Below, piece by piece: positions 30,133 through 63,762 of a DNA stretch of 64,000 nt; positions within the stretch are counted from its first letter, which is position 1, and the number at the start of each line of letters is the position of its first letter. Below the pieces are notes generated by a model. The model worked only from the letters and a program-made list of their open reading frames with translations, searched no databases and had not been told where the DNA came from. Source of the stretch: Armatimonadota bacterium (GTDB lineage Bacteria; Armatimonadota; HRBIN16); assembly GCA_963677485.1 (NCBI GenBank), contig OY781964.1, positions 4,928,001 to 4,992,000 of the forward strand. Direction: 5' to 3'. Made by a program: the position numbers and the translations under genes.

Positions 30133-30310
30133 TATCTACGGGCACGCTCCATTTCCTGTTTTTCATAGTCAAGCTGCCTTTCTAGCGCTTCGACGAACTC
30201 CCGCCGGATGCGCAGCGGCAACTGGGAGACCTGTGCATACTCCCAGTGCAGCCCGCCGTAAGCTAGAAAGAAGGCATCCCTTATAACCGAACTCCGGGGA
30301 ACAAAAAAGC
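30132..30310 (-). CDS. tail assembly chaperone C-terminal extension, reached by -1 frameshift
   Basis: No good independent start; entered via T TTT TTG. LAYGGLHW.Y..V..LP...RR.F resembles gpT-type extensions. Confidence 0.7.
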
Positions 30311-30958: not shown

Positions 30959-30972
30959 GTGGTTTTCTCCTT

Positions 30973-32966: not shown

Positions 32967-32969
32967 CTG

Positions 32970-33248
32970 TTACCTCCGTTTCTTTGTAATGGGGTCAGTC
33001 GCCTGTTCGACCACTTCCGTCTGCGGCGTTTCAGATTCGTCACCTGCTGTGACCGCTGTGACCGAATGCTTCACCTCAGACATATTGGCAAGTGCCACGA
33101 ATCCCCGGCTAGCTGCGGTGCGCATCTCCGCGGTGACTTCATCACGCCTAAGTATCTGGCGTTCCCTGGGAGAGAGATGCAAACTTGCGCTCTGCCTGGC
33201 TAACTGAAAAGTTAGCGGCTGGTTAAGTAGGTTGCGTATTTCTATCAC
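32970..33248 (-). CDS. small virion-associated hypothetical protein
   Basis: AGGAG RBS; N-terminus resembles that of 35085..35426. Confidence 0.55.
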   Translation of the reverse strand: MIEIRNLLNQPLTFQLARQSASLHLSPRERQILRRDEVTAEMRTAASRGFVALANMSEVKHSVTAVTAGDESETPQTEVVEQATDPITKKRR

Positions 33249-33257
33249 TTTTGTCTC

Positions 33258-33782
33258 CTATAGACTCGTTTCTATCTTCACTCCGGTAGCCAGCTTCCCT
33301 GAGATCACCAGCCCGTCATACACGGGGCAGTCCTCAATGCGGCACTTGCCGGATGCCTGCCGCATGTTTGAGAGGTTCACTCTCTTTAGTCCGCCGAGTG
33401 GCACAAGCTCCGTGAGATGAAGTGCGCTCTGCTCACCGAGCGAAAGCGCCGGGTGTAACTGGTAGAACCGTGCCACCTTCTCCAGCATCTCCAGAAGCTC
33501 AGATTCGAGGCCGGTGGTGACCACGATGTCAAAGTCCAGATGATATAGCCTCGGATGCCGGCACCCCTCGAAGCTCAGGTTTACTTCATCACGCCTCGTG
33601 AGCATAGCAGGTGTCCGTCTGCCACCGTCTTCTGTGAGCACCGGGCCCTGTATGACCACACTTGGCACTTTGGGCACTTCGAACGCGTCATCTGAAGCCA
33701 CCAGCACCGCACCTGAATGCAGCTCCGTCTTCACGAGTCGAATGAACGACTCGACTACGCTACGTAGAACGCTCATATTCAC
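33258..33782 (-). CDS. putative tail terminator/completion protein
   Basis: Position just upstream of the sheath gene; P..Y.L.F.I.V pattern. Confidence 0.55.
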   Translation of the reverse strand: MNMSVLRSVVESFIRLVKTELHSGAVLVASDDAFEVPKVPSVVIQGPVLTEDGGRRTPAMLTRRDEVNLSFEGCRHPRLYHLDFDIVVTTGLESELLEMLEKVARFYQLHPALSLGEQSALHLTELVPLGGLKRVNLSNMRQASGKCRIEDCPVYDGLVISGKLATGVKIETSL

Positions 33783-33785
33783 CCC

Positions 33786-34274
33786 TCATTCCATCACCGA
33801 CAGCAAAGCATCCCTGTAGTTCCTGATAACCTCATCTCGGTATTTGTTCATAGTAGGATGCAGAAACGGTCTTGGCGGGATGACGATCACGGCACCACTG
33901 GGATGGTTGATCGTTGCGCCAAACTCCATCACTGCCCCGATATTTGCTATACTCTCTCCGTCCTTCGATATGCTTGTACGTAGCAGACCCACAAACGCGC
34001 CATCTGAGAGTATCTTCTGAGTGATGCTACTGACTAGAAACCCCGTATCAATCAGCGCTTTGCTTGATCCTTTACGCTTTGTTGTTATCTCGGCCAGCGG
34101 AGTAAACTGCTGGCCGCCTGGTGCCTGGCTCTTGATTCCGCGTTTGATTTCCCGAACGAGCAGAAGCGCGTTCTTTATCGTCGCTTTCCTAACAGCTAGT
34201 GCCAGGCGCTGACTATAGCCGTTTGTCAAAAGCCGCTTGGCCTTCTCCCAGTCACCGAACCGGCTAATCTCCAC
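33786..34274 (-). CDS. virion morphogenesis/neck protein (Mu gpG-like)
   Basis: PLA..T..RKGSSKALIDTG.L, EFGA, IPPRPFL. Confidence 0.85.
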   Translation of the reverse strand: MEISRFGDWEKAKRLLTNGYSQRLALAVRKATIKNALLLVREIKRGIKSQAPGGQQFTPLAEITTKRKGSSKALIDTGFLVSSITQKILSDGAFVGLLRTSISKDGESIANIGAVMEFGATINHPSGAVIVIPPRPFLHPTMNKYRDEVIRNYRDALLSVME

Positions 34275-34299
34275 GGCTAATCTCCACGGCTAATCTCCA
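34261..34299. repeat. 13-bp tandem repeat x3 (CGGCTAATCTCCA)
   Basis: Exact copies at 34261, 34274 and 34287. Confidence 0.95.
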
Positions 34300-34652
34300 T
34301 GTATCTCCACGAGTCTCAGCGTCTTGTGCGTGGTCACCCCGAAATGCTGCTCCGGGGTCACGCTCTGCACGCGGTAGGTTTGGTTACCTACCTGGATCCG
34401 GTCCTGCGCGCAGACATCCTGTTCAGGAAGCACACACGCCGTGGCGTCAATTTTGTTTACCATGTCCTCCCTGGTGGTCAGCTGGAACTCAAGCTTAAAC
34501 ATGCCAAGCTCCGTAAACGCTGCATCATCCGAGCCGTAGAGCCTTTCACCGCTACCAGCTCGAAACAGCAGTGCCTCCTGGCCAGAACTAATCAGCAGCG
34601 CCCGCACGTCATTCGCTGCTGCCTGCTTATCTGTATCCGTCAGCAGGCTCAT
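34290..34652 (-). CDS. putative head closure protein
   Basis: DV...DRI.VG..TYRV..V motif; position in the neck cluster. Confidence 0.6.
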   Translation of the reverse strand: MSLLTDTDKQAAANDVRALLISSGQEALLFRAGSGERLYGSDDAAFTELGMFKLEFQLTTREDMVNKIDATACVLPEQDVCAQDRIQVGNQTYRVQSVTPEQHFGVTTHKTLRLVEIHGD

Positions 34653-35104
34653 ATCTCTGAACCCTGTTCGTAGACCGCGATCGGTATTGACCTGGGTGTC
34701 ATGACGAAATCGTCTACCCCGCTTACGGCCTTTATCTCACCAAGCCGCTGCTGATAAGTAGCCGTCAGGTCCGATTCGAGTTTCGCCCAGTGTTCGGGCT
34801 GGCTCGTTTTGTCTACGCGTTTATCACCAGATGAGAAGGAGAAGGCATTAGCGGTAGCCGCCCTCATGAACTGGCACGCAGCGATCTGAGCTTGCAGTAG
34901 GAGTATCTCTAGCACCTCCCCCTGCGGTGCAGGGATTATCTCGCTGCTTACCACACTCATCTGCGTGCCGGTATCTCGCCCGACCGCAAACGTGCTTCTT
35001 AGGATGCAGCGTTTGAGCACCTCATCTGCGAAGCGCTCAGAACTGGGGTCGGCCAGATCGGTCCTGAGCATGGTGATGAGTTCACTAAGAGCCAACGTTC
35101 TCAC
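34649..35104 (-). CDS. putative head-tail adaptor
   Basis: LI..LR.DL.D....F.DE.L and FSFSSGD..VD pattern. Confidence 0.6.
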   Translation of the reverse strand: MRTLALSELITMLRTDLADPSSERFADEVLKRCILRSTFAVGRDTGTQMSVVSSEIIPAPQGEVLEILLLQAQIAACQFMRAATANAFSFSSGDKRVDKTSQPEHWAKLESDLTATYQQRLGEIKAVSGVDDFVMTPRSIPIAVYEQGSEI

Positions 35105-35426
35105 CCGGAGTATCTATGGGCCTCGCTGCCTGCTTGGCGCCATCTGCGATAGCAGCGCTTTCAGTTACGTTCCCTTTGGCCGCAGATGGGGCCTTTGCCG
35201 CTACTGCCTTGCCAGAGCTGCGCGGAGGCGCCTTCACTCCCGGTTTTGGCTCTGACTCCGGCTCTGGCCCAGTCAACGGCTCTATACGTGTTAACAGCCC
35301 GTCTTCTATGCACCGGTTCATCTGGGGGGTGAGCGTCTCCACGCTCGCAGTCCCACCTGGGGTTAGCTTGAGCCCGGCATCAGCAATGAGCAGCAAGCCG
35401 GGTCTCACGTTCTTTACCTTGATCAC
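35085..35426 (-). CDS. hypothetical protein with Pro/Ala/Lys-rich tail
   Basis: GGAGG RBS; immediately follows the capsid gene. Confidence 0.55.
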   Translation of the reverse strand: MIKVKNVRPGLLLIADAGLKLTPGGTASVETLTPQMNRCIEDGLLTRIEPLTGPEPESEPKPGVKAPPRSSGKAVAAKAPSAAKGNVTESAAIADGAKQAARPIDTPGENVGS

Positions 35427-35438
35427 TTATAGGCCTCC

Positions 35439-36302
35439 TTAGGGCAGAATCTTAATCTTAGCGAGAATCTCTGGGCGGGTGATGCCCTGCCCCAGTTCCG
35501 ACCACACTAGCCAGCCCGTCTTGAAGCGGGTCTTCTGCTCAATGGCCTCGGTCTTCAGCGCCTCGCGGATGGGCATCTTACCGATCTCCTCATCGGGAAT
35601 AATCAGGATCTCATCCATGTCGGCAGACGCGGTCAGCATGATGCCGCCGGTGCCGTAGTTCTTGATCACACCCTTAGTGCGAAACTCAGCCCTGGTTTCG
35701 GGATCAAGGTCCCAGTCACGCATGTCGTTAAACCGGCGGCCACGCATCACGATAAACTTCACCGCTAGCTCCAGGTCCTCAATGATGGAGATCGCCTCGT
35801 TCAAGGCGTCATCGGTGAGCTTGCCGCCGGTGACCTCTATCGTGTTCGCGGCAGGCACCGCCTTCGAAATCACAGAGATGGTGCGCTTATCCATCTCCTT
35901 ACGGATCTCTTTTGCCGCGGATGTCTGGATATCCATAAGCGTGCCGATATTGCCGTGCTTGAGCACAGAGATGTCGACCATGGGCTCTGCGTGAATACGG
36001 TGTGTCGGGAACTCCACTTCGTCCTGACCTACCTCCTGTTCACGTGCCTCACCCTCGGTGCTAATCCAGTAGGCCTTCACCGTGGGCCGCTTCTGGTAGA
36101 CAGGACGCTCACCCGTAGGCAGCGTATGCTGGGTCAGTAGGAGCGAAGATTTCTCCTTACGATCTATCTCCTGAGCGATGGGGCCAGCGATGGCCGCGGC
36201 CAGTGCACGCATACCTTCTGGAGATTCAAGCGCCTCGCTCATAAGCCGCGCCATCGCCTCCATATACTCCTGGCTGTGAATGCTAGTCTGAGATGTGTTC
36301 AT
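35439..36302 (-). CDS. major capsid protein (HK97 fold)
   Basis: 287 aa, follows the protease/scaffold and decoration genes; A...I...MD...I spine helix and E.G..I.RP C-terminus. Confidence 0.8.
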   Translation of the reverse strand: MNTSQTSIHSQEYMEAMARLMSEALESPEGMRALAAAIAGPIAQEIDRKEKSSLLLTQHTLPTGERPVYQKRPTVKAYWISTEGEAREQEVGQDEVEFPTHRIHAEPMVDISVLKHGNIGTLMDIQTSAAKEIRKEMDKRTISVISKAVPAANTIEVTGGKLTDDALNEAISIIEDLELAVKFIVMRGRRFNDMRDWDLDPETRAEFRTKGVIKNYGTGGIMLTASADMDEILIIPDEEIGKMPIREALKTEAIEQKTRFKTGWLVWSELGQGITRPEILAKIKILP

Positions 36303-36323
36303 CTGTTCGTCTATTCCTCCGTC

Positions 36324-36686
36324 CTAAATAAGCAAGCGGTACTTAAGCGTCCCGCTCGAAATAGAGAGCGCTTGAGCGACCACTTTGTCATCCACTCCGG
36401 CGCTAGCGGCGAGCTTACCGCTCACAGCGACCTTGAGACTATCGCCTGCTGTGATGTTGCCCTCGTACACGTCGGTCTCATACACCCCGCCCATGCAGAA
36501 GATGCCGGGCATCTCGCCGTTACTGTAGTCTTTGATGAGCACTCCGAAGCTGCTGACGCTCGGGTCTGTGTTCACTGCAAACAGGTCGTTACCTACGATC
36601 TTCACGAACTGACCGCAAGAACCTGCGCCCTGCATATATCCGTGGCCATATGCTAGCCCTCGATGAGCTGCGTTAAGATATGCCAT
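36324..36686 (-). CDS. capsid decoration/cement protein
   Basis: 120 aa, Gly-rich beta, I.AGD.L.V..SGKL motif; directly upstream of the capsid gene. Confidence 0.65.
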   Translation of the reverse strand: MAYLNAAHRGLAYGHGYMQGAGSCGQFVKIVGNDLFAVNTDPSVSSFGVLIKDYSNGEMPGIFCMGGVYETDVYEGNITAGDSLKVAVSGKLAASAGVDDKVVAQALSISSGTLKYRLLI

Positions 36687-36698
36687 GTTTACTCCTCC

Positions 36699-37298
36699 TT
36701 AGTTGCCTTCGCTAGCGAGACCAACCCGCTCACGATAGGCGGCCATGAATCCGTCCCGGAGCTTATCTTCCAGGGAGGACTTCTTGTCGTCTACACTTAG
36801 GGCACGCACACCTGCGTCTGTCCTGAGTGAATGGGAAGCAGTTGCCGACGACACCGGTGGTGTCAACGCTGCCGTCTTTTCGGCCTGATCTGCTTTGTTC
36901 TCACCAGCCTGCTTTGCCGCGTTCTGGCAATCAGACCTCGACTGGATCACCCTTTCAAACGCGGCTTCGGTAGCCGCAAACGCCTCGTCGGAAAGCGCAG
37001 CCAGCCGGCTAAGTTCCTGCTCCTTATCCTCCTCAGAGCTAAACGGCATGCCGCTTCGTTCGAGCTTCTTTAGTAGCTTCTGTGCTCGTGCTTTGTTCGC
37101 CGCGGCCTTGCTCTGCGCTTCTAGGTCCTGCACCTGCTTTTGAAGCTCAAGAATCTGGTTCTTTAGCGCCTTGTTTTCGGTCTCAAGCTCCTTCACTCGG
37201 GCTTTGTCGTCAACTGGGGGCACGCCGGCGCCGGCTGGGGCCTGTTGCTTCTTTGCAGCCTCAAGCTGCTCCTCGGTGTCTTTGTGAATCTCCTCCAC
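36699..37298 (-). CDS. nested in-frame scaffolding protein (internal start)
   Basis: AGGAGG-N7-GTG in frame at codon 600, just after the protease-like domain; charged coiled-coil product. Confidence 0.6.
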   Translation of the reverse strand: MEEIHKDTEEQLEAAKKQQAPAGAGVPPVDDKARVKELETENKALKNQILELQKQVQDLEAQSKAAANKARAQKLLKKLERSGMPFSSEEDKEQELSRLAALSDEAFAATEAAFERVIQSRSDCQNAAKQAGENKADQAEKTAALTPPVSSATASHSLRTDAGVRALSVDDKKSSLEDKLRDGFMAAYRERVGLASEGN

Positions 37299-39095
37299 TA
37301 GGTTGCCTCCTGTGTTTTTGCAACTGCACTGATGCGCCTCATCTGAGGCGACTTGTGTGATTCGCGCATTTTCATCTGCTCCTTTACGGTCGAGAAGTCC
37401 GAGTCCGGTGAATGTCACTCCGTGAAGGATCTCAAACACCGGCTTACCTTGATACTCCGCACCTTTGAACTTGCGCAGGTGCGTGCAGTAGTCATTCTTT
37501 GAGCTGACCTTCGCGGCGCAGATTGAGCACTCGCCGCTCTCGTAGTCACACTCCATCGAGACCTGCGTAATGATGCCGCGTTTCATAAGCTTGTGAGCAA
37601 GCGAAGCCGTGGGTGTGTCCGCAGTAAATAACTCGCCCACGCACTCGATACGCCCGCCTGCCTCGTCATCCACGAACTCAGCGCCGATGATGCCGCCCAC
37701 GATATCAGTCAGGTCCTGCGAGTGCTTGAGGTCGATCTTCTTGTTGATAGCTGTCGAGTAGCGGGTCGATAGCTCTTCTGGCAGAAAGTGGTCCCCGTTC
37801 TTGTTGGTGCCAGCCCTGCACATCACGAAGCTAAACTGCGGGTCGCCTGCATTGGGGTTCAGGTCGATTGCTGAAGCCGACATACCAGCACCCATGGCCA
37901 TATCCACTGGGATGATGGTGTGACAGTTAGCTGCCTTAGCTAAAGGTAAACTCTGCGCCTGGGCCGACTTAACCCCCTTAGTGCAGATGAATAGCCGCTC
38001 CATGGCCACCGAGTTTTCGGAGTGCTTGGCGGAGATGCTATACTTGTGCTGACGCGACTGCATCCGGCTCTCTTTACCACTCTCCGAGATGATCTGCTTC
38101 ATCTCTACCTCGTTTGGGTAGGCATGGTCACGGTAGGAGATCAGCCAGTTCGCGATATGCTTTGCGCTCCCAAGGAACGTGCTGAAGAACTCATTGGCAC
38201 TCGCTTTGGTGACCGTCTTGTGCTCTGTGGCGTAATGGTGGGTCTTTGAATCTTCGTTAATGACCAGTCCGTCCCAGTAAGTCATAAGGCCCTCTACGAA
38301 GTGGTAACTCTTCTCATAGTTAGTCGTAGAGAACTCAGTCGCATAAGGCGGATCGAAATAGGCCAGGTCGACCTTCGCTTCCGGCAGCACCTCATTGATG
38401 TCTTTGTTAAGCGCCTTACACTCCTTTCCGTTGTCGAAGATGAGGGCGTTGATGCGTGCAATATTGTCAGAGAAGCGCTGTATGAACTCCTCTGGTGTGT
38501 CTTGCCGCTTGCCGTAGTCTGTCGAAGAAGAAAAGTGACCGAAGCCGCCCTTGCCAGACAGGCAAGTCTTACCGAGTGCAAACAGCGCGATGTCCTTCTT
38601 ATACCCTTCCAGTTTGTCTGCATTTGCTCTGATGTCATCTATAACCCCGTGCACTCCGCCTGCGAAGAATAACCCCTTGAAGTTGTCCTGGACAAAGGTC
38701 CCTGCCTTTGGGTTCTTCGCAAGCAGAGCGGCGAGTTCGTCTTCACTAATCCGCACCGCTGTGTTCTCGACGATAGCGCGAGCAGCGTGGTATGAGTAGC
38801 GCAGACGGTCGTTGGCGGTGACCTTAAGACCCTTGGTCTTGTACATGTAGGCCACCACGCCAGATCCGGAAAACGCGTCAATGACTGAGTTCACACCCTC
38901 TGGGGTATGTCTCCATATCCAGTCGATAAGCTTCTGCTTGGAGCCTATGTAGTTGGTGATGTATTTCGGTCGATCTTCGGCGGGCTGCTCCTCAGTGACT
39001 AGCTCCCCCGCTTCAGAAAGAAGCTCAAGTTGACAGGATGCATCAGCCTCAAGTAGGAAGGCCAGCCGGTCACGATCTGTTGCAAATAACTCCAT
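36699..39095 (-). CDS. fusion of N6-adenine DNA methyltransferase (D12/alpha class), prohead protease-like domain and scaffold
   Basis: NYIGSK, DAFSGSG, YFDPPY (aa ~45-370); then TNKNGD, IDLKH, VSMEC, C-x2-C..CTH, GAD..A.I (aa ~420-585); then a coiled coil. Confidence 0.85.
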   Translation of the reverse strand: MELFATDRDRLAFLLEADASCQLELLSEAGELVTEEQPAEDRPKYITNYIGSKQKLIDWIWRHTPEGVNSVIDAFSGSGVVAYMYKTKGLKVTANDRLRYSYHAARAIVENTAVRISEDELAALLAKNPKAGTFVQDNFKGLFFAGGVHGVIDDIRANADKLEGYKKDIALFALGKTCLSGKGGFGHFSSSTDYGKRQDTPEEFIQRFSDNIARINALIFDNGKECKALNKDINEVLPEAKVDLAYFDPPYATEFSTTNYEKSYHFVEGLMTYWDGLVINEDSKTHHYATEHKTVTKASANEFFSTFLGSAKHIANWLISYRDHAYPNEVEMKQIISESGKESRMQSRQHKYSISAKHSENSVAMERLFICTKGVKSAQAQSLPLAKAANCHTIIPVDMAMGAGMSASAIDLNPNAGDPQFSFVMCRAGTNKNGDHFLPEELSTRYSTAINKKIDLKHSQDLTDIVGGIIGAEFVDDEAGGRIECVGELFTADTPTASLAHKLMKRGIITQVSMECDYESGECSICAAKVSSKNDYCTHLRKFKGAEYQGKPVFEILHGVTFTGLGLLDRKGADENARITQVASDEAHQCSCKNTGGNLVEEIHKDTEEQLEAAKKQQAPAGAGVPPVDDKARVKELETENKALKNQILELQKQVQDLEAQSKAAANKARAQKLLKKLERSGMPFSSEEDKEQELSRLAALSDEAFAATEAAFERVIQSRSDCQNAAKQAGENKADQAEKTAALTPPVSSATASHSLRTDAGVRALSVDDKKSSLEDKLRDGFMAAYRERVGLASEGN

Positions 39096-39144
39096 TTATC
39101 TCTCCCCTGCAGATTGAGGGTGATTATCATACCCCTCCACTTGA

Positions 39145-39176
39145 TATTTACGCGCGAAAAATGGAAAGTGTCGGAA
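39145..39176 (-). promoter_or_regulatory. element-specific promoter, copy B
   Basis: TTCCGACACTTTCCATTTTTCGCGCGTAAATA, 49 bp upstream of the MTase-protease start. Confidence 0.75.
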
Positions 39177-39284
39177 ATGGGCTTTTGAGGGGTTTTCGGG
39201 CCGATATTGCTGCCATTTCGAGTGATTGAAGCGGTATTATGGTATCAGTGACGTGACCATGTGGCGTCTGAATGGGGCATTTTG

Positions 39285-39302
39285 ACACTAATTAATTAGT
39301 GT
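39285..39302. promoter_or_regulatory. perfect 18-bp palindrome ACACTAATTAATTAGTGT, operator-like
   Basis: Core CTAATTAATTAG recurs at 63606 and, with 2 mismatches, at 59537. Confidence 0.6.
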
Positions 39303-39517
39303 ATGATGGATTTCAACACAGCCGGATCACCTCTCTTAGAGAGCAGGTTCAGGGTCATAGATTACTCCCCATATTACGATGGACAGAGTAATCAGGTAAA
39401 CTGTGAACATAAAGGCAAAACATTTAAATGAACATATGCAGGTACCGGGCTAACACCGAGCCAAACGTCCGGGCCAAACGTCCGGTGAGCAGTGTTCAGA
39501 ATGGAGTGAATTCATAT

Positions 39518-39838
39518 ATGGATGCAAGTTCATTACCAGAGGGTGGACGGTGGTCTTGTCGCCGTAAGCTGGAGATCGTGCAGCGCATTATTGCTGGCGA
39601 ACCTATAGAAGACGTATCGATGCATATAGGCGTGCCGATTAGTCAGCTTGAAGACTGGCGAGACAAAGCGCTTGCCGGCATGGAAGCGGCTCTGAAGACA
39701 CCTGTTGAGAGCTTAGTAGATCATCAGCTCAAAGTGGCACAGAGGCGTATCAGCGCGCTGTCTATGGAGAATGAACTGCTTTACGAACGCTGCCGCCTGA
39801 TCGACCGCCCTTTTCCCCAGGGGAGGTCGCGAAAATGA
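39518..39838 (+). CDS. IS3-family OrfA-like HTH protein
   Basis: RWS.RRK.EIV.RI..GE.I..VS...GV....L..WR HTH, then zipper MENELL. Confidence 0.75.
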   Translation: MDASSLPEGGRWSCRRKLEIVQRIIAGEPIEDVSMHIGVPISQLEDWRDKALAGMEAALKTPVESLVDHQLKVAQRRISALSMENELLYERCRLIDRPFPQGRSRK

Positions 39839-40209
39839 GCGCTGCAATCTCCCCTTCAACAAATGCTCGCTACGGGGTAGAACGGGTGTGCCGAGTATGG
39901 GAACAACCCCGCTCCACTTACTATTTAAAGACCACAAGAGTGGTTAAGGTTGCTTCCACCACACCAAAACTGAAGCGTGGGCCAAAGACCGTAATTTCCG
40001 ATGAGGAACTATTAGGTGCCATCCAGAAGGAGATTGAAAGCTCACCCTCAAAGGGTAATAGCTACATGAGAATATACGATTCACTTCACTTCGGCCCGCA
40101 GAAATTACGAGTGGGCAAGAGCCGTGTGCTTCGTCTGATGCGTAAATATGAGTTATTTACCACTTCGCAGGTAACGGGCAGAGTGTATACTGATGCAGAT
40201 ACAGATTAA
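39835..40209 (+). pseudogene. IS3-family OrfB N-terminal fragment lacking the DDE core
   Basis: YGV.RVCRVW..PRST.Y, RGP....SDEELL..I, RV.K.RVLRLMR, then a stop before any integrase core. Confidence 0.7.
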
Positions 40210-41062
40210 GAACACGAACGATGTAGTTATTGTTTCAGGGGAATACCCAAATATGAAGGCTGCCGTGCATGCGAGTAGGGACAGTTTACAAGCTGCCAAC
40301 CTGACGGGTGCCGACTTGTCACATACGGATCTGGACGAGGCCAATCTACGTGGTGCCAAACTGGAACACGCTAATCTTGAAGCTGCTCAGCTATGGGGCG
40401 CTAGTCTTCAAGGGGCCGACCTGACAAAGGCGAATCTTAAAGGTGCCAAGCTAATCAGAGCCAATCTGACCGGGGTTAATCTGAGCAGTGCCAATCTGCA
40501 CAAAGCCAATCTGAGTAATACAGATCTAGTGAATGTCTGTCTGCAAGACGCCAATCTGAGTGAGACAAACCTAACAGGGTCTAACCTAAGTGGTGCTAAT
40601 CTGGCGGGGGCAAACCTGAGCGGCACGTGGATGAATTTCACCACACTGTCCGGTGCTGATTTACACGGTGCTAATCTGAGTGGTGCCCAACTCGAAGATG
40701 CCAAACTCACTGGTGCCAATCTTACTGACGCAAACCTGGAAGGTGCCCATCTGTCTAGCACTGATCTACAAGACGCCAATCTGAGCAGATGCAGTCTCAA
40801 ACATGCCATACTAAATGGAGCTAATCTTACCAAAGCCAATCTAACTCATGCTAATCTGAGCAGTGCCGACCTTACTAGTGCCAAGCTTACTGATGCCAAT
40901 CTAGACGGCGCTAATCTGGAAGGTGTAAATTTGTATCGGGCTCATCTAGACCGCGCCAATACGATCTTAATCAAGCGGTTAACACAGGCTGCTGAGAAGG
41001 AAGCTGAGAAGCAAGCTGAGAAGCAAACTGAGAAGGAAACCAATGTCACGCCCACTTTTTGA
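40193..41062 (+). CDS. pentapeptide repeat protein
   Basis: More than 40 consecutive A(N/D)Lxx repeats. Confidence 0.95.
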   Translation: MQIQIKNTNDVVIVSGEYPNMKAAVHASRDSLQAANLTGADLSHTDLDEANLRGAKLEHANLEAAQLWGASLQGADLTKANLKGAKLIRANLTGVNLSSANLHKANLSNTDLVNVCLQDANLSETNLTGSNLSGANLAGANLSGTWMNFTTLSGADLHGANLSGAQLEDAKLTGANLTDANLEGAHLSSTDLQDANLSRCSLKHAILNGANLTKANLTHANLSSADLTSAKLTDANLDGANLEGVNLYRAHLDRANTILIKRLTQAAEKEAEKQAEKQTEKETNVTPTF

Positions 41063-41107
41063 CGTGATAAAGTGCAGTCCATATAAAGGAAGACAGGCAA
41101 TGATCTT

Positions 41108-41584
41108 ATGCAGGTAGAAATTCGGATTATAAGCGGGGCGGTTATAGTTTCAGGAGACTACCCGGATATGAAGGCCGCGGTGCAAGCTAACAAAGACAAG
41201 CTACGCACCGCTAGTCTAGCAGGTGTCGACCTGTCCCATGCAGATCTGAAAGGCGCATTTTTGCGTGATGCCTGTCTGAAGGGTGCCAATCTGCAACATG
41301 CCGATCTTCAGACCGCGGTTCTTTGCAGATCAAGCCTGGATGGTGCTAATCTGACAGGGGCCAACCTACAAGGTGCCGATCTGAAGGGTGCGGATTTAAC
41401 TCATGCGGATCTGAAAGGTGCCAATTTGTGTTATGCGGATCTGCGAGATGCGGACCTGACAGGTGTCAAACTAAGTGGTGCCGTTCTAAAGGATGTGAAG
41501 CTGCGCGGTGCGAAGTCGCATAAAGTCAGGTTTTGCTATTATTGGTTTGCCATCACGTCATTCCTGCGCCTTATGAGGTCATAA
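41108..41584 (+). CDS. pentapeptide repeat protein (paralogue)
   Basis: About 20 A(N/D)Lxx repeats; N-terminus VIVSGDYPDMKAAV matches the upstream gene. Confidence 0.93.
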   Translation: MQVEIRIISGAVIVSGDYPDMKAAVQANKDKLRTASLAGVDLSHADLKGAFLRDACLKGANLQHADLQTAVLCRSSLDGANLTGANLQGADLKGADLTHADLKGANLCYADLRDADLTGVKLSGAVLKDVKLRGAKSHKVRFCYYWFAITSFLRLMRS

Positions 41585-41710
41585 GGGTGAGACACTTTCG
41601 ACACGCCTAACTCTATATGGCGGATATGCATCAACGCTGTTCATGTAGAGGCAGATATGCTTAAGACCAAGACGCTGCTTACCGCCACGACCATGTAATA
41701 GTCACCGTGC

Positions 41711-42046
41711 TCATAGCCTCGATAACCCACCAAGCACACGCGCGGCACATTCCTCAGCTGTCGCGTATTCATCTGTAATAGTGATCTCCCCACGCATGCC
41801 CCGGTACGGTGACATCGTCGCGCGGTGATACGCCAGGAAGCCTTCTGGCAGCGTCTTCACCCCGTTCTCAACAAGTCTATTGAGCACCCAGTCCGCATCC
41901 TCCTGCGCCTCCGCGTTACCAGGCAGATACTCCATCACGATATCAAGCCCAGCGCCATACCCCTGCACCCACACACCTATGGGCTCATAATGGGGGCTGG
42001 TGTCCCGGTCGCGTAGCGTAAATTCCGTCATATAACTCAGTCTCAT
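41711..42046 (-). CDS. small acidic protein, candidate immunity protein 2
   Basis: ATGA-coupled to the upstream gene; second gene after the MuF toxin-like gene. Confidence 0.55.
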   Translation of the reverse strand: MRLSYMTEFTLRDRDTSPHYEPIGVWVQGYGAGLDIVMEYLPGNAEAQEDADWVLNRLVENGVKTLPEGFLAYHRATMSPYRGMRGEITITDEYATAEECAARVLGGLSRL

Positions 42047-42513
42047 TGCCACCCCTCCGCCATAGCGATATGCTCCTCAAGAAGCTGTGCATCTATTTGT
42101 TCAAACAGTATTGCATTAGCCGCTTTGTATTTCTGCCAGTTTTTCCAGTCTGCAAGCAGAGCCAGGTCCTGGTTCGGGCAAAGCAGCTCGATATGATACC
42201 TGCGGCTCCGGTCGTCGGTGACGTCCAGCATGTAGGTATCGTCCTGGTGCCAAGCTATTACCTTGATCGTGTGCGCATATTGCCAGCCGTTATTGTAGCC
42301 AGCCGACTTAAACAGCAGCCAGAAGTCGGTGCTTGTGATGTTTCCCGCCGCATCAAAGTGAGGTGCCACACGTGTGACGGTGTAGCTGTCGATTAGGCCA
42401 AAGCCCAGCGCCTCGTGCTTGTCCTCATTCATCTCCGTCCAGGAGCCTTGACTATTGAACTTCTCGAAGAGCCCCTGGAGCCGCGCCTTCAGCTCCGTGA
42501 TGATCTCATTCAT
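42043..42513 (-). CDS. small acidic protein, candidate immunity protein 1
   Basis: GGAG RBS, starts 11 bp after the MuF stop. Confidence 0.6.
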   Translation of the reverse strand: MNEIITELKARLQGLFEKFNSQGSWTEMNEDKHEALGFGLIDSYTVTRVAPHFDAAGNITSTDFWLLFKSAGYNNGWQYAHTIKVIAWHQDDTYMLDVTDDRSRRYHIELLCPNQDLALLADWKNWQKYKAANAILFEQIDAQLLEEHIAMAEGWQ

Positions 42514-42524
42514 ATTTTGTCTCC

Positions 42525-45500
42525 CTACCTCTCTAACACGATCTGTTCTATTTTGCGGCCGTCGGGCAGCACAGAAATGCCGTGCTTCCTAAATACGTCA
42601 AGCACTCTCGTTCTCTCCTGGGAGCCGCGCACTACGATGCTTTCTAGGTTATCAAGCAGCGTGACCGAGTATTTCAGTATAGTCTCGTTGCCTGACTTAC
42701 TTGAGAAGCTCTTCCATGCCTGTGGATCCGAGCCGCGGTTCTTTGCGACGTAGTCGTCCTTCACTTTACCGAAGGCATCATGGCTGTAGCTTATCGCGTC
42801 CATACGCCTCAGCAGCTGCTTCTTAAAATAGAGCCCCGTCTCCCCTGTTGATGCCGTTGGGGTCTTCTTAATACGCGTGAAGACGTAGCTGGCTCCCCCG
42901 CTATTCATGTCCGATTCGGGGGACATCCCACCAGGAGCTATCCCCGCTCGTAGTTTTTCGACAGTGCTAATCATGGCTCCGTTGTTTTCCAGAACGGTGT
43001 CAAGAAACGAGCTGATGTTCTCACCGTTTGTGAGGCTGTGATGTAAACTGTAGCCCTTCATTTCACGTTCCATATCTGTGTCCGAGATGTCGAAGCGGTA
43101 CTGCTGCCTGTAACCGCCACGCGTGGCACTATCTTTGAATCCAAGCTGATACCGCCCTACCGGGTCATAACCAGGTAGCTTTGTAATATCTGGAGCGCCA
43201 AGCCTGTGCTCCCAGTAGCCGCGCATCGCCTGCACGCGCTCAGTCTTTGTGGCGTTACGACCGTCAAGATCAGAGAGTAGCTGGACATACGCAGGCTCCG
43301 TGTCTGCCTTAGTGACATAAGCCTGCTTTGCTAGATACAGGGCTTCAGAATCCTCGGCAGTGGCAATGTTAGCCTTTACTCCGAGCTTCTCCATGTGCCC
43401 CAGTGCCTTCTCTAAACTTCTCGAATCGGCGTTATTAGGCAGCACAATCTCAAACTCGCCCTGCTGAGCGTAGTGGTTCTTATCTGACCACGGGCGATAT
43501 ATCGCGTGAGTGCCGTCACCGAAGTCTATCTCATACTGCTCACCGTCTAGCATCGAGCGGTTACGAAAGAGCGATGAGTTATCTGCTCCGTCTTGATCAA
43601 CCGAAAGCTCCCCCCGGCTGAGTGTTCGCTTTGTGAGCAGCACCTTTGTTTTCTTCACAGTGTAACCCAGCTCTTCTACCCGCTTCCTAGAAGCAGTATG
43701 CTGCCTTGTATAAGCAGAGAACACGTCGGGGATCTTTTCCCGCTGCTCTACCGACTGCTTTACTCTCTTAAGCCAGGTGATATAACCTTCGGCCATGGCC
43801 TTCACGTCCGGGTCATCTGACTTCGATAGCATTCTCAGAGCATCAAGATGCTTGACTGCCTTATCTATACTCGCCTGGTTATAGGCACCGTCCTGGGCAT
43901 GGTGGTTTACGCTCTTCACCGCAGCGAGGATGTCGGAGGAGAAGCTGTCCTCCTCAAGTAGTTCACCTAGTTTTGGAGCGGTAGTCTGACGATCTGCCTT
44001 CTTTAGAGCCGGCAGTATCTTCAGCTCTGCCTCCGGTCTCAGTTTCATCTTCACCACAGTGCGCGTTTGAGAGTTCACCGTCTCCGTAAAGATAAGAGCG
44101 TTCTGGTCCTCTATGTCACTCTCATCAATGGGTAGTGCTTTACCTTGCCAGCCAAGCTTTCGCGCATCCTCAATCATCTGCTCCTCAGCTTTACCTATGC
44201 GGCCAGCTTTTGGTAGTGACGGCCCGTCTTCAAACCGGAAGCCAGGTTTAGAAAGAACATCTGAATAGAATCCCTCGAAGTTGCTGCGCAGACTATGCTT
44301 TCGCTCGATTGCCAGCTTACTAAACGCCTTCTTCTGGGCGTCAGTGGCAAAGCGTCCCTCCACGTAGGGACGCAGCAGCTCCAGGTAGTCATCATCTGAG
44401 ATGCGCTCTACTTCGCGAATATACCTTAGTGTGACGGAGGGATCAACTGCAACCTTCCCCTGTTTGGCTGCTCTGAACAGCGTGTTATAAAACGGCTCCT
44501 GTTCTCCGCAGGCACCGTTAGGGTGGTAGTCAACAGAGAGTGTGTCTGAGCCGAGGAACTTGGATAGCTGCCCCTTGTCGATGCCGTATACCTTACCGGA
44601 TTTCGCTCTCAGAAACTGCTTGGAGTGGCCGTCATGATTTGAGATGAGCCAGTCAATCACATGCTCACGCTGCACCTGCGATATTTCGTCTGGGGTGAGA
44701 TCACGCGCGTCAAAGCCGGAGAAGTCATACTTTGCAGCTAGATCACTGCGCCATTTCTGGATCGAACCTATGCGCCCGTTGAGACGGATTGTCCGCACCT
44801 CAACGCAGTCGGGGTCTATTAATCTCGCAAGCTTGTAAGCAGCCTCTTCGCCGCGAGCAATGAAGTCGTCTGAAGTGCTGCCTACTGGCTTGAATAGCCA
44901 CTTTTCACCGTTCTGGTCGGTCCAAAACTCCTTCTCATGCGCGCCACCGACCTTAGCTTTACCCTCATACTTGAACTTCTCGGGCTTCCCCATCTCTGAC
45001 CACGCGGAGTCAACATCGAAGAACTCCGAACCCTTCTTAGAAAACGCTGAGGGTGACGCGGTGGTGACGGTCTGCGTGATGGGGTCTGGCTCCGTCTTCG
45101 TTTTTGCAGCTGGGGTTATCGGCTTAGAGGCCTTAACGGAAGCGGACTTGTTCTTTTCGGCCCACTTGGCATGTTTAGCTGCTATGCTATTTTTCGCAGC
45201 ATCTATTTTAGTTTGATCGGTCTCCGTAAACAGCGTGGTCAACTCATCTTTATTAGCCCACTGCCAGTGCGTAAGCTTTGCCTGCTTCGCTGTCTCCTTT
45301 AGGTCACTGGACTTCATGGCAGAAATCTGCTGAGCGAATGTGTGCTTCTTGAGTGCGATTTCCTTTGCGTGCTGCTCTATCACCGCCGCAGGTAGCCCAG
45401 AATCTTTAGCAAGCTGCGTTTCGGCGGCGGACACCGAACTTAGGAAAGATTGATACCCCGCAGGAGAGGACGGCATCACTACCTGCGCCGTGGCTTCCGT

Positions 45501-47120
45501 TAGCGACTGCTCCGCCTTTTTCAGAGCCTCTGCCTTTGCTCCGCTTAGTGCCTGCTGCTTGGCCTGCTCCGCCATCTGCTGACCCGCCGCCTTCTCCAGC
45601 GCTTTTGCTAGCTGCTGCTTGTTCTTAAGCGGAGGGATACCATATTTCTGCTTGGCGGCCAAAAGCATTTGGCCGGATAACCCGCTGTGGTCGATATTTG
45701 GTTCAAGGGTGTCGAGTATCTCGATCACTTCAGACTTTGTGAGGTTGAGTGAGACGCTGTGTTGTTTTGCCATCTCCTTAAGCTGCACTGTCGTTAGTCC
45801 TGACAGGTCTGAGCTTGGCGCCACAAGTTTAGCGGCCTCCTCAAGTGCCTTCGCCTGCTTGAGCGCGGCCTGCTTAGCAGCGAGCAGTTTTACGAGGTCA
45901 TCTTTGCTGCGAAGCGCAGCGATGTTGTATTGCTTGATTTTCGCCTGCAGCGCAGCACCGGAGAGGTCCCCGTGATCCACGCCAGGTTCAGCTACTCCAA
46001 GCAGATGAATGAAGTCAGCCTTAGTGCGGGCCACGCCAATGCCGTTTGCCTTGGCGAGTGTCTGAAGCTGCTTTATAGTAAGCGCGGAGAGATCCGCAAC
46101 CTGACCAGAATCAAAAGCGGACTTAAGCTTCTTCTCTTCTTCCACCTGCTTCTTAGCCTGCTCCTCTATCGCCTGTGGTGGGAGTATGCAGGCAGTCGGC
46201 TCTTCTGCGGCACTCGCTCCAAGTTCACCCCCGCAGACCACAAGCGGCCATGCAGGCAGTGTTGAGCACCGGCAGTTTGGATGCGCAGGTTGACTGGGAA
46301 AGCGGTCCGTATCAAACTGCTTGCCGTCAAGCGCCCCGCAGACAGGGCACATTCGCTCATCTTCCATCGTCATCCACTCTGTCTTTGTCACACCGACCTG
46401 CTGGTGAAACTTAATACGCCCCTGGTTATGCGCGCGCAGCAGTTCTGTGCGAGCGATCATCTCCATGCGGTACTGCGCTTTAGAGAACACCTTACTCCCC
46501 GCGTGGCGGAAAGATTGTTTGTCATCTATCACGCTGCCCATGTCACGGACGATCTCACTTGCACTCTTTCCAGTAGCTATCCCGGCGAAGATGGTCTTCT
46601 TAATGCCGTCTGAAAGCTCCCGGTGCACGTCCCCCGCGAGCACCAAGTTGTAGTTCGCCATAAAGCCAAGCGCATCGGTGTCGATGAGCGTGAACACTGA
46701 GGTAGTGAGTTTGTCAATGCCGCTCGGTGTGAGCTCTTTATAAATCGGCATCTGAGCGGAAGCGAACTCCTCTATCCCGTGATACACCCCTGAGCGAAAG
46801 GATGCGTTACTAGCGCTTTTGAACATAAGGGTCTGCTCACGCTCCAGAGATTTTAGCAGTCCCCCTATCTCGCCGCTTAGCTTCTCAAGACCCAATTTGG
46901 CTGCCAGCTTATTACCGGGTAGCGTCCCGAGTTGCCCGAAGCCTAAGATAGCACTAGATACCAACTTCTGAGCCGATGCGAGTGACTGCTTAAGCCCCAT
47001 CACCACCTGGCTCACATATAGATCGCGGCTAAGCAGGCTTTTATCAGTCGCTTTACGAATGGCCTGGGATTGCGAATTCACATCCGCGATAGCACACAGT
47101 GAAGGCGGTGGAGTATTCAT
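42525..47120 (-). CDS. MuF (SPP1 gp7-like) minor head protein with HeH repeats, HipA/PI3K-like kinase and putative ART-like C-terminal domain
   Basis: IARTE..RA.N.G, DER.CP.C..LDG, P.HPNCRC; WLFKP..EEAAY..GSIQ..DWLISNHDGH..IDKG; start at TGATG overlap with AGGAGG. Confidence 0.85.
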   Translation of the reverse strand: MNTPPPSLCAIADVNSQSQAIRKATDKSLLSRDLYVSQVVMGLKQSLASAQKLVSSAILGFGQLGTLPGNKLAAKLGLEKLSGEIGGLLKSLEREQTLMFKSASNASFRSGVYHGIEEFASAQMPIYKELTPSGIDKLTTSVFTLIDTDALGFMANYNLVLAGDVHRELSDGIKKTIFAGIATGKSASEIVRDMGSVIDDKQSFRHAGSKVFSKAQYRMEMIARTELLRAHNQGRIKFHQQVGVTKTEWMTMEDERMCPVCGALDGKQFDTDRFPSQPAHPNCRCSTLPAWPLVVCGGELGASAAEEPTACILPPQAIEEQAKKQVEEEKKLKSAFDSGQVADLSALTIKQLQTLAKANGIGVARTKADFIHLLGVAEPGVDHGDLSGAALQAKIKQYNIAALRSKDDLVKLLAAKQAALKQAKALEEAAKLVAPSSDLSGLTTVQLKEMAKQHSVSLNLTKSEVIEILDTLEPNIDHSGLSGQMLLAAKQKYGIPPLKNKQQLAKALEKAAGQQMAEQAKQQALSGAKAEALKKAEQSLTEATAQVVMPSSPAGYQSFLSSVSAAETQLAKDSGLPAAVIEQHAKEIALKKHTFAQQISAMKSSDLKETAKQAKLTHWQWANKDELTTLFTETDQTKIDAAKNSIAAKHAKWAEKNKSASVKASKPITPAAKTKTEPDPITQTVTTASPSAFSKKGSEFFDVDSAWSEMGKPEKFKYEGKAKVGGAHEKEFWTDQNGEKWLFKPVGSTSDDFIARGEEAAYKLARLIDPDCVEVRTIRLNGRIGSIQKWRSDLAAKYDFSGFDARDLTPDEISQVQREHVIDWLISNHDGHSKQFLRAKSGKVYGIDKGQLSKFLGSDTLSVDYHPNGACGEQEPFYNTLFRAAKQGKVAVDPSVTLRYIREVERISDDDYLELLRPYVEGRFATDAQKKAFSKLAIERKHSLRSNFEGFYSDVLSKPGFRFEDGPSLPKAGRIGKAEEQMIEDARKLGWQGKALPIDESDIEDQNALIFTETVNSQTRTVVKMKLRPEAELKILPALKKADRQTTAPKLGELLEEDSFSSDILAAVKSVNHHAQDGAYNQASIDKAVKHLDALRMLSKSDDPDVKAMAEGYITWLKRVKQSVEQREKIPDVFSAYTRQHTASRKRVEELGYTVKKTKVLLTKRTLSRGELSVDQDGADNSSLFRNRSMLDGEQYEIDFGDGTHAIYRPWSDKNHYAQQGEFEIVLPNNADSRSLEKALGHMEKLGVKANIATAEDSEALYLAKQAYVTKADTEPAYVQLLSDLDGRNATKTERVQAMRGYWEHRLGAPDITKLPGYDPVGRYQLGFKDSATRGGYRQQYRFDISDTDMEREMKGYSLHHSLTNGENISSFLDTVLENNGAMISTVEKLRAGIAPGGMSPESDMNSGGASYVFTRIKKTPTASTGETGLYFKKQLLRRMDAISYSHDAFGKVKDDYVAKNRGSDPQAWKSFSSKSGNETILKYSVTLLDNLESIVVRGSQERTRVLDVFRKHGISVLPDGRKIEQIVLER

Positions 47121-48658
47121 CAGGCCTCCTTCATGCGCAGAAATCGGCACGCTGGGGTATCAAAGCTCACATCTGCCGACGACACACTACACATGCTGCT
47201 GGGTTCATAGAAGTAACCACACTCGTCGCAGAGTTTGCCGGCATATGACGCCTTCGTAAGCAGGCCGTCCCAGTTCGCAGTGGCCCCGGAGCCAACAGGG
47301 TTCTTCGCCGGGTCTAGTCCAAGCATCTGCTGAGCGGTCTCTATGCTCATAATCCCGGCTACCACCATATCCACAATGGGCTTCACCTGCTTCTCGTCTA
47401 GCAGATCCGCGGACTTTCGTTCGTTCTGGCGATTACCTTCCTCTATCTCAGGGTTCAGATCCATCTTCATCTGCAAAGACGAACGGCTGATGAGCTTTCG
47501 GTCATACAGTTCTATGAGCAGCTTTTTGAAATCCACGGCGTCCGTGGGGTCAAGATCATTAAACAGATACTGGATGCTCTTGCCAGAATGGCCCGCAAGT
47601 TCCAGCCAGTCGGAGTAGATCCAGTCGAGTATCTCGCGGGCCGAATGGGTGATCTCCCTAATCATGACAAGCATCTTCTGCATACTCACAGAGGCTGTCG
47701 CAAAGTTAGGCCCGTCACCTGACACGAGCGAACGAGAAAGTCCCTGGGCGACAACGATGTCTTCCTTCACCTCCTTGACCTTGTCTTCCACGTTTAGCAC
47801 CTGACCCTCGGTGCCGTGCGTTTCGACAGATACATAAAATGGCACAATCATGCCGCTTTTCATGTCCATGTTGTTCATCAAGTCACGCACCTGCTCAAGC
47901 ATCTTCTGATCTGGCATGATCATGCGCTGCTTGAACTCACCGCCCACCTTGATAAACCGGAGCGGCGTGGCCCAGCGCTTAGCGATAGCCTGTTCGGCGC
48001 GCCGGTAGTCACGCAGCAGCTCAATGGACTGGAAGGCCGGAAGCACAAGCGAATTACCTCGCGGTGAGAACTCCGGTGCGTCCCATTTTAGATGTATCGT
48101 CTGCTCCACCGGCAAGGTGATGCCCTCTGCCCCGTTTTGAGCATCATCGGCGTACTGCTTGACTTCTATTAGCTCACCCTGCGAATACTTCACTTTCACA
48201 GATACCGGGTTCACGCAGGTAATCTGTTCGATATCCCGTCCGTCTTTGCTGTAGCGCTTAAAGCCGACCGCGTCCCCCTTAACAAGAAGCTGCAAGATCA
48301 TATCTTTCACAAACCGCGGGATGCGCAGCTGCTTGGCCAGCTCATTTGCTTCAAGTTTCACATGTTCGTCGTCGCTTGTTATCTTCACCTCATCACCCAC
48401 AGAGAAGGTGCGCCATGAGTTCACGCAGTTCTTCACAAGCGGTTCCTCTGTGTAGTATTCCCAGGCCTTCCTTGCCCGGTCTTCCCACGATGCGGGTATG
48501 GCGTCATTCGCACTCACGGCACCAAACGCAGAGGAGCCGAGTGCAGCCATGGTCGCCAGCGGCGTCACTACCTGGCCATATGCCGAGGTGTCCCCCGCCT
48601 CAACTGCGCTGGTATCAGTTATTACCGTGTCATTAATCATCGTGTCGTTATTCACCAT
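47120..48658 (-). CDS. portal protein
   Basis: 512 aa between terL and MuF; L..GDA, NP.SV.V, IHLK......PRG.S...PAF. Confidence 0.8.
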   Translation of the reverse strand: MVNNDTMINDTVITDTSAVEAGDTSAYGQVVTPLATMAALGSSAFGAVSANDAIPASWEDRARKAWEYYTEEPLVKNCVNSWRTFSVGDEVKITSDDEHVKLEANELAKQLRIPRFVKDMILQLLVKGDAVGFKRYSKDGRDIEQITCVNPVSVKVKYSQGELIEVKQYADDAQNGAEGITLPVEQTIHLKWDAPEFSPRGNSLVLPAFQSIELLRDYRRAEQAIAKRWATPLRFIKVGGEFKQRMIMPDQKMLEQVRDLMNNMDMKSGMIVPFYVSVETHGTEGQVLNVEDKVKEVKEDIVVAQGLSRSLVSGDGPNFATASVSMQKMLVMIREITHSAREILDWIYSDWLELAGHSGKSIQYLFNDLDPTDAVDFKKLLIELYDRKLISRSSLQMKMDLNPEIEEGNRQNERKSADLLDEKQVKPIVDMVVAGIMSIETAQQMLGLDPAKNPVGSGATANWDGLLTKASYAGKLCDECGYFYEPSSMCSVSSADVSFDTPACRFLRMKEA

Positions 48659-63730: not shown

Positions 63731-63762
63731 TTCCGACACTTTTCATTATTCACGCGTAAATA
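63731..63762 (+). promoter_or_regulatory. element-specific promoter, copy E (points rightward)
   Basis: TTCCGACACTTTTCATTATTCACGCGTAAATA. Confidence 0.7.

Follow-up and report, generated by a model that had tools for sequence, protein, structure and literature searches.

Why does the gene of a prohead protease and scaffold open with a DNA methylase? The question is raised by a prophage gene at positions 36699..39095 (minus strand) of a 64,000-nucleotide (nt) stretch from an Armatimonadota bacterium (GenBank assembly GCA_963677485.1, contig OY781964.1, positions 4,928,001 to 4,992,000 of the forward strand); the whole stretch is called the window, and coordinates are counted from its first letter. 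We propose that the gene is the equivalent of gene I of phage Mu in a temperate myovirus prophage, with an intact Dam-like methylase at its N-terminus. The explanation as a whole, in which the methylase is loaded into the head and delivered to the next host, we hold slightly more probable than its negation.

A methylase, a prohead protease and a scaffold in one reading frame

A first-pass annotation, made from the sequence alone, had described an uninterrupted open reading frame (ORF) of 798 codons, and this is what we found: a single unbroken frame of 798 amino acids (aa) plus a stop codon, encoding 87.6 kDa. Its parts are as follows.

36699..39095, minus strand: full ORF, methyltransferase, prohead protease and scaffold (phrog_27806 match over the full length)
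39100..39107, minus strand: Shine-Dalgarno sequence of the full-length ORF, GGGGAGAG, 4 nt before the ATG (6 nt counted from the GGAG core)
37941..39095, minus strand: D12-class Dam-like (alpha order) N6-adenine DNA methyltransferase domain, aa 1-385 (Pfam, AlphaFold2 (AF2), Foldseek)
38859..38879, minus strand: motif I DAFSGSG, S-adenosylmethionine (SAM) binding, aa 73 (D73, F75 and G77 invariant in 21 sequences)
38343..38354, minus strand: motif IV DPPY, catalytic, aa 248 (invariant in aligned relatives)
37299..37940, minus strand: prohead serine protease module, aa 386-599, assemblin/HK97-type fold (conserved N-terminal 'HT..PV' segment, His458, Ser513, Asp574)
37479..37529, minus strand: putative zinc knuckle Cys523-x2-Cys526...Cys537-x-His539 in the protease domain (at least 90% conserved, 55 sequences)
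37306..37311, minus strand: internal Shine-Dalgarno sequence AGGAGG, coded by Gly-Gly codons (conserved at the DNA level, 71/72 loci)
36699..37298, minus strand: predicted nested gene from GTG/Val600, a 199-aa, 21.6-kDa coiled-coil scaffold, like Mu Z within I

For the N-terminal domain, the Pfam family PF02086 (MethyltransfD12) matched aa 49-262 with an E-value of 1.3e-25 (91.1 bits against a cut-off of 22); the cut-off of the NCBIfam dam subfamily TIGR00571 was missed (27.8 bits vs 114.85). All three alpha-class motifs that had been noticed earlier, NYIGSK, DAFSGSG and DPPY, were found in place, the first at aa 48 (38954-38937, minus strand). Residues D73, F75, G77 and D248-P249-P250-Y251 are invariant even in relatives only 37% identical, and a (D/N)PP(Y/F/W) motif occurs in 76/76 related ORFs. 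The AF2 model of aa 1-385 (21 sequences) had a mean predicted local distance difference test score (pLDDT) of 82.3, with aa 1-36 and 376-385 disordered or uncertain; a conserved N-terminal helix (aa 1-30) was modelled at low confidence, and a disordered linker starts at about aa 375, after the methylase domain.

Since sequence searches of solved structures in the PDB (single protein and profiles) gave nothing but noise from coiled coils and zinc fingers, with no relative of either the methylase or the protease, fold comparison was needed. With Foldseek, the nearest folds to the methylase model were 7m6b and many E. coli Dam chains (E 1.8e-7 to 4.5e-5, probability 1.0, target-normalised TM 0.47-0.59). 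The domain is thus like E. coli Dam and the D12-class orphan methylases in Pfam family, in the FxGxG-then-DPPY order and in fold, and differs from E. coli Dam in being only 13-14% identical in the structural alignment. Hence, as judged from conserved residues and the model, the N-terminus is a Dam-like N6-adenine DNA methylase that appears catalytically intact.

A His/Ser protease-like domain with a zinc-finger insert had been suggested to follow, together with the caveat that the C-terminal domain might lack a protease fold. This was tested, and an assemblin-like fold was found. The AF2 model of aa 385-600 (55 sequences) had a pLDDT of 87.6, exceeding 94 across all of aa 415-584, and its best PDB folds were the assemblin proteases of herpesviruses (pseudorabies virus 4v07, E 4.3e-3; varicella-zoster virus, human cytomegalovirus and herpes simplex virus), with probability up to 1.0 and a TM of only ~0.4. 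Among the viral models of BFVD, 195 matched at E<=0.001, led by Bacillus phage G gp19 (7.7e-17), and many of these are named prohead protease, COG3740 or XkdF-type. His458, Ser513 and Asp574 are at least 90% conserved in the 55 aligned relatives. Hence, by modelled fold, residues and gene position, we assign aa 386-599 as the prohead protease.

Matches to sequence families were weak: Peptidase_S78 (Pfam) gave E 0.12 and 12.9 bits, under its cut-off of 21, and phrog_18299 ('head maturation protease') gave E 1.5e-4. Because the domain misses the S78 cut-off and forms, by its sequence, a family apart, with phage G gp19 and Gordonia phage gp13 as relatives, we do not file it under S78. Profiles of C2H2 zinc fingers match its conserved Cys/His region weakly, and Cys523, Cys526, Cys537 and His539 probably form a zinc knuckle.

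Residues 600-798 matched coiled-coil families and peptides weakly, at aa 608-708, and gave nothing stronger, so that the coiled coil noted earlier after the protease stands to that extent. The scaffold tail is conserved, with R758, D770, L775, E776, G782, F783, Y787 and R790 invariant in the alignment of relatives. The linkers at aa 375-418 and aa 585-600 are variable and were modelled at low confidence, making them plausible cleavage regions.

The PHROGs family phrog_27806, 'DNA methyltransferase', aligns to residues 1-792 of 798. Hence, this architecture is already in databases, labelled as a methylase only, and with 'DNA adenine methylase' as the sole label of these genes, the head protease and scaffold of the phage group go unannotated.

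The fusion is conserved across phyla

Orthologues with the same architecture had been proposed as a check, and we found them fused, not split. A word-indexed protein search returned 494 proteins at E<=0.001, and 119 of them were listed by bit score, a ranking that favours two-domain forms. All of these 119 are 796-1367 aa long, most cover 93-100% of the query, and they hold either one DPPY-type motif (20 proteins) or two (99 proteins). Three layouts occur: one methylase followed by protease and scaffold (~800 aa), as in the window; a pair of paralogous methylases that share 36% identity and both have FxGxG and DPPY (~1190 aa); and the latter with an extra domain of ~90 aa between the two methylases (~1280 aa). 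The two-methylase forms go beyond what the first-pass annotation had noticed, and they keep both methylases within one polypeptide.

A scan of loci, using one genome per species, found 154 relatives in 238 candidate stretches, from which 80 loci were kept. By record title these belong to Armatimonadota, Desulfobacterota, Verrucomicrobiota/Kiritimatiellales, Hydrogenedentota, Phycisphaerae, Gammaproteobacteria, Myxococcota, Acidobacteriota, Nitrospiraceae, Anaerolinea, Ignavibacteriales and Treponemataceae. Every locus that holds the protease part has it in the same open frame as the methylase (76/76); the other 4 of the 80 end before it. The single-frame fusion is kept down to 46-48% identity, in Myxococcota loci. 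Hence, the covalent link is under selection; for co-expression alone it would not be needed.

The protease domain by itself was also run against 1.84 billion cluster representatives, which gave 915 hits at E<=0.001, of which 43 reach E<=1e-30. Among these 43 closest representatives, 20 have the methylase and 23 do not. The latter comprise 5 N-terminally cut fragments, 2 proteins (P0149 and P0157) that match only the C-terminal part of the protease domain, 8 apparently plain proteases or protease-scaffolds with fewer than 35 residues before the domain, and 8 with other N-terminal add-ons, 6 of which are the ~90-aa domain. Three plain proteins of ~390-410 aa (P0126, P0133 and P0146) start exactly at the 'HT' segment, where the methylase joins in the window. 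Hence, the methylase is an optional add-on before a complete protease-scaffold module. Five relatives of P0126 were found in IMG/VR (42-59% identity), the two examined lying in ORFs of 1163 and 813 aa; the locus of P0126 itself was not found there. In more distant relatives the protease stands at the N-terminus of proteins of 800-2460 aa.

The ~90-aa domain (W-E-E-T-x-N-E-I-R-Y ... G-V-S-I-I-V-G-K-L ... W) stands either between methylases or alone before the protease, and is carried by P0051, P0099, P0102, P0128, P0138, P0141, P0147, P0151 and P0159. It has no match in Pfam, and we see in it another type of cargo, or an adaptor, for this slot. The add-ons of P0128, P0132, P0138, P0141, P0147, P0151 and P0159 received no Pfam assignment, nor did plain P0126 or the long remote relative P0203.

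Two viral proteins of 622-679 aa in BFVD (A0A6J5N5R9 and A0A6J5RFH1), annotated as Dps/ferritin, also match the protease model (E ~1e-8), which suggests that fusions of other kinds of cargo to the protease exist in other phages.

Some of the loci are nearly identical in DNA. The head-tail locus of Ectothiorhodospira shaposhnikovii DSM 243 (Gammaproteobacteria; L062) is 96-97% identical to loci in other taxa. It was compared with the 22-kb loci L003, L004, L005, L006, L009, L011, L012, L021 and L023, and the matches span essentially all 22.3 kb for six of them and ~16.3-16.6 kb for L003 and L004. Loci of this type occur in isolates of Desulfobulbus, Desulforhopalus, Desulfofustis, Desulfosarcina (a complete chromosome) and Desulfocarbo, and in metagenome-assembled genomes (MAGs) of Verrucomicrobiota, Geobacteraceae and Desulfuromonadales; a Hydrogenedentales MAG is 92% identical. 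Near-identical prophage DNA in cultured isolates of different phyla points to very recent and very broad spread.

A predicted nested start for the scaffold

Right after the protease domain the DNA reads ACAGGAGGCAACCTAGTG, that is AGGAGG-N7-GTG, with an in-frame GTG at Val600 (37298-37296), a feature beyond the earlier annotation. An in-frame GGAG followed after 4-10 nt by a start codon stands at the protease-scaffold boundary in 71 of the 72 loci that hold this segment (ATG in 64, TTG in 4 and GTG in 3). The distance from Shine-Dalgarno sequence to start is exactly 8 nt in 69/71, across 41 distinct sequence contexts. The peptide coded there varies (GG, GD, GE) and the first Gly codon is always GGA; hence, the constraint acts on the nucleotides.

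As a control, all in-frame GGAG-plus-start sites of 70 distinct full-length ORFs were mapped onto the window protein. Such sites were found at position 1 in 59 of the ORFs, at positions 599/600/605 together in 67, and at any other position in at most 12; the window ORF itself has them only at codons 1 and 600 of 798. Hence, a conserved nested scaffold start is predicted in this gene, with a 199-aa product. Phage Mu likewise has an in-frame scaffold start inside its protease gene, with the Shine-Dalgarno sequence 8 bases from the start codon (PMC4378225).

A conserved internal start that would give a methylase-free protease was considered and rejected, as only 3/70 ORFs have one near the methylase-protease junction. 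Hence, each protease molecule should carry a methylase.

Capsid loading as the proposed mechanism

The protease-scaffold proteins of Mu, lambda and P2 enter the procapsid together with the scaffold. From its covalent attachment before a complete protease-scaffold module, and from the lack of a methylase-free protease start, we infer that the methylase enters the phage head. Two products would be made, the full 798-aa methylase-protease-scaffold and an abundant nested 199-aa scaffold from GTG/Val600. Since the two have their C-terminus in common, with the coiled coil and a predicted capsid-binding tail, the long form should be built into the procapsid together with the nested scaffold, each protease molecule taking a single methylase along. 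Once the head is assembled, the protease would digest the scaffold and make cuts in the disordered linkers, and the freed 43-kDa methylase would stay trapped in the head, being too large for the capsid pores. The site of action that we favour, by analogy with DarB of phage P1, is the next host: the methylase would exit with the DNA and methylate the incoming genome before restriction enzymes cut it. Translation of the nested product, procapsid incorporation, cleavage, retention, ejection and protection are thus proposed steps, which we infer from the gene's architecture and conservation. That the fusion is kept in very distant relatives with invariant catalytic residues, where an adjacent gene would suffice for co-expression, argues that head entry matters for function.

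Several points weigh against this. The presence of the protein in procapsids and virions is read from architecture, and a search of sequencing runs listed none of RNA for this organism. The locus scan was seeded on methylase peptides, so unfused relatives could not surface in it, and with 23/43 of the closest protease representatives free of methylase, head assembly does not require the methylase. When it digests the scaffold, the protease might destroy the methylase as well. Having a single sequence specificity, a Dam-like enzyme would give protection only where the restriction system has sites that match. In this prophage an insertion sequence (IS) remnant and a pentapeptide cassette interrupt the head operon, which they may have damaged, and this copy may yield no phage.

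On the side of the proposal, the complex predicted between the capsid protein and aa 690-798 of the scaffold gave weak support, scoring 0.48 against 0.00 for the best control, its runs sharing at least 40% of contacts with a partner pLDDT of 46-48. The mark used is reached by 58/80 solved complexes and 2/110 mismatched pairs, and passes at 0.60 or less account for only 7 of those 80 and for both mismatches that passed; by this calibration, a pass of this kind is wrong more often than not unless the interaction was probable from the start, and we do not rely on it.

Alternatives to delivery into the next host

The main rivals to next-host delivery are methylation during packaging and methylation only before assembly. 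The latter survives best, and we consider it unlikely. Here the methylase would act only in the cytoplasm, late in infection like the Dam enzymes of T4 and P1, for protective or pac-site methylation before assembly; the fusion would tie its synthesis to late expression, and head-carried copies would be degraded or inert. Phage Dam-like enzymes do normally act before packaging, and the closest solved folds are those of ordinary free methylases. However, an adjacent gene would suffice for co-expression, yet the one-frame arrangement holds in every locus with the protease part, in many phyla and to ~46% identity, and the two-methylase forms keep both enzymes in the same polypeptide.

Less probable again is a methylase that is loaded into the head, freed there, and methylates the genome during packaging with SAM that diffuses in, without being ejected, so that packaged DNA alone is modified and the lysogen is not exposed to its activity. 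The architecture fits this as it fits delivery into the next host, and the sequence does not separate the two. Strictly late expression would be expected, and the promoter-like element upstream (described below) is common to structural genes. Against this, a base-flipping enzyme would work poorly on DNA that is densely packed, and we know of no example of methylation of packaged DNA inside a head.

We regard as very improbable that the domain has a structural or non-DNA role, methylating a head protein or RNA or serving as a bulky filler that sets packaging density. Other N-terminal add-ons occupy the same place (the ~90-aa domain in 6 representatives), and these, together with the protease-fold proteins of BFVD annotated as Dps/ferritin, indicate that the slot accepts varied cargo. 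However, DPPY rather than NPPY, FxGxG, a PF02086 match far over its cut-off and a Dam-like fold point to DNA N6-adenine methylation, and the invariant catalytic residues speak against a filler. That the fusion is a one-off or an assembly or sequencing error, which the first-pass annotation had allowed for, has no point in its favour, has a negligible probability and is ruled out by the 76/76 independent fused loci and by the number and 796-1367 aa lengths of the protein matches; the ORFs of 813 and 1163 aa on IMG/VR viral contigs also speak against it.

Comparison with known systems

The ingredients of this proposal are each known: Dam-like phage methylases, the nested protease-scaffolds of Mu I/Z, capsid-packaged DarB and polyvalent packaged proteins. 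We did not find the combination described. In the open-access papers and preprints searched, no fusion of a methylase to a prohead protease or scaffold is described, and the supplementary architecture tables of PMC5512222 and PMC7824862 may list it; in the available text of PMC5512222, prohead protease appears only in the reference list and the word scaffold is absent.

Like Mu I/Z, the target gene lies in the slot between the portal/MuF and capsid genes, and has the protease followed by the scaffold. The two further share the in-frame internal start with its Shine-Dalgarno sequence ~8 nt upstream, and a small gene before the capsid gene (PMC4378225); gene 27 of the Pseudomonas Mu-like phage PaMx73 is similar to Mu I/Z (PMC4378225). 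In contrast, Mu I has no N-terminal enzyme, where the target has 385 aa of methyltransferase (one or two methylases in relatives) before the protease; its protease has the conserved Cys/His knuckle and falls under the Pfam S78 cut-off; and the target phage is not transposable and has a primase-helicase and a Sak4-type recombination module.

That a methylase can be packaged in a capsid is not a new concept, a point that the first-pass annotation had not made (P1 DarB; polyvalent proteins, PMC5512222). DarB is a 250-kDa methylase-helicase present at ~40 copies per head, and protects incoming DNA from type I restriction (PMC9024508, PMC5512222). By the proposed route the target would resemble it: DarB is packaged in the head, is believed to enter the cell with the DNA and protects in cis, and, unlike the target, it is a separate protein loaded by a 30-residue N-terminal signal and helper Dar proteins (PMC9024508, PMC5512222). 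The target has no helicase and is joined to the protease-scaffold.

The HK97 protease is targeted into the procapsid through its C-terminus. In T4, a capsid-targeting sequence loads internal proteins, which are carried in attached to the scaffolding core until the prohead protease releases them (PMC9024508). These systems use a short targeting peptide, whereas the carrier in the target is a whole protease-scaffold and the cargo a natural enzyme fusion.

Polyvalent proteins with a MuF domain are multidomain, and often have DNA adenine methylases; packaging and injection are predicted for them (Iyer et al. 2017, PMC5512222). The window carries one such MuF giant upstream of the target gene, which is probably a polyvalent-type packaged protein in the sense of PMC5512222. 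A broader picture would be an N-terminal cargo slot through which temperate myoviruses load one or two methylases per protease into every head and inject them with the genome; methylation would be immediate and independent of the previous host and, with the packaged MuF giant, would help near-identical phages to lysogenise different phyla. We offer this tentatively, as it probably claims too much.

If the methylase rides in on the protease-scaffold, this would be a third natural route of enzyme loading, in addition to short targeting peptides (T4, P1) and MuF/portal-associated proteins. The phage would have in it a compact defence against restriction, in a set number of copies per head, and the fusion could serve directly as a design for enclosing cargo enzymes in HK97-fold shells. 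The finding is relevant, too, to how some temperate phages get past large barriers between hosts, and since the family is widespread, with near-identical copies in cultured isolates of different phyla, the idea is directly testable.

Genomic context of the fusion gene

The neighbouring head and tail genes are as follows.

Before TerL in minus-strand order, minus strand: small terminase-like ORF
48940-50466, minus strand: TerL
47120-48658, minus strand: portal
42525..47150, minus strand: MuF-domain giant minor head protein, 1541 aa (PF04233 E 6.6e-16; phrog_6577, phrog_115)
Between the MuF giant and the target, minus strand: two small ORFs
39428..41584, plus strand: opposite-strand insert of IS3-type transposase N-terminal remnants and two pentapeptide-repeat proteins, splitting the head operon
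36324..36686, minus strand: 120-aa ORF, candidate decoration protein by position (in 70/80 loci)
35439..36302, minus strand: major capsid protein, 287 aa (phrog_2522 E 2e-83; 75-87% identical in 25 aligned locus sequences)
After the major capsid protein, minus strand: neck, sheath, tube and tape measure genes

The head gene order is that of Mu and lambda, with the target in the slot of gene I (protease-scaffold), and the protease position upstream of the capsid gene that had been read from the sequence earlier holds (TerL, portal, MuF giant, target, 120-aa ORF, capsid). The 120-aa ORF is a candidate for the 'decoration' gene placed there, by its position, which is that of the decoration genes in lambda and PaMx73 (PMC4378225); by sequence, the 120-aa ORF has only a weak phrog_673 match and no Pfam hit. 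Among the 80 loci, the capsid protein and the MuF giant are each found in 67 and the portal in 57, the misses being mostly on short contigs. The MuF giant has a Phage_Mu_F domain at aa 182-297 and an endonuclease VII-like region at aa 291-385, the rest being long and without assignment; phrog_6577 covers aa 66-1389.

Megablast of window positions 30000-47000 against the phage collection gave no match, and tblastn against it gave 7 records, partial and distant, none covering 80% of the query. A Mu-like transposable phage was considered and rejected, as its replication genes code for a primase-helicase, a helicase, a Sak4-like protein and an exonuclease.

The insert separates the two small ORFs from the target, whose promoter-like element follows it closely. 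It has two IS3-type fragments (HTH_Tnp_1, HTH_21) without a catalytic domain, then pentapeptide-repeat proteins of 289 and 158 aa. Its 4 ORFs had no match in any of the 80 related loci; hence, it is specific to this window.

The first-pass annotation had called the target the first gene after a promoter, its promoter B. A 30-nt element is indeed present upstream, one of five near-identical copies in the window, of the form CCGACACTTT..CGTAAATA, each ahead of a gene block.

39174-39145, minus strand: promoter-like element, CCGACACTTTCC...CGTAAATA, 50 nt upstream of the target ATG
26110-26081, minus strand: further copy
59420-59391, minus strand: further copy
59263-59234, minus strand: further copy
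63733-63762, plus strand: further copy

Scanned for sigma-70 promoters and terminators, positions 36200-42600 gave 3 promoter-like sites, where shuffled sequence led us to expect 5.0, and none of the 3 is upstream of the target. Of 69 distinct upstream regions from related loci, 53 have CCGACA...CCGGTAnGTA at 77-142 nt before the fusion gene. As judged from these sequences, the element is probably the phage's own type of promoter.

The G+C content is 0.37-0.41 to the left of ~8 kb and 0.49-0.58 over the phage genes (window 1-8000 vs 9000-62000), and by this shift the left boundary of the prophage is near 8-9 kb.

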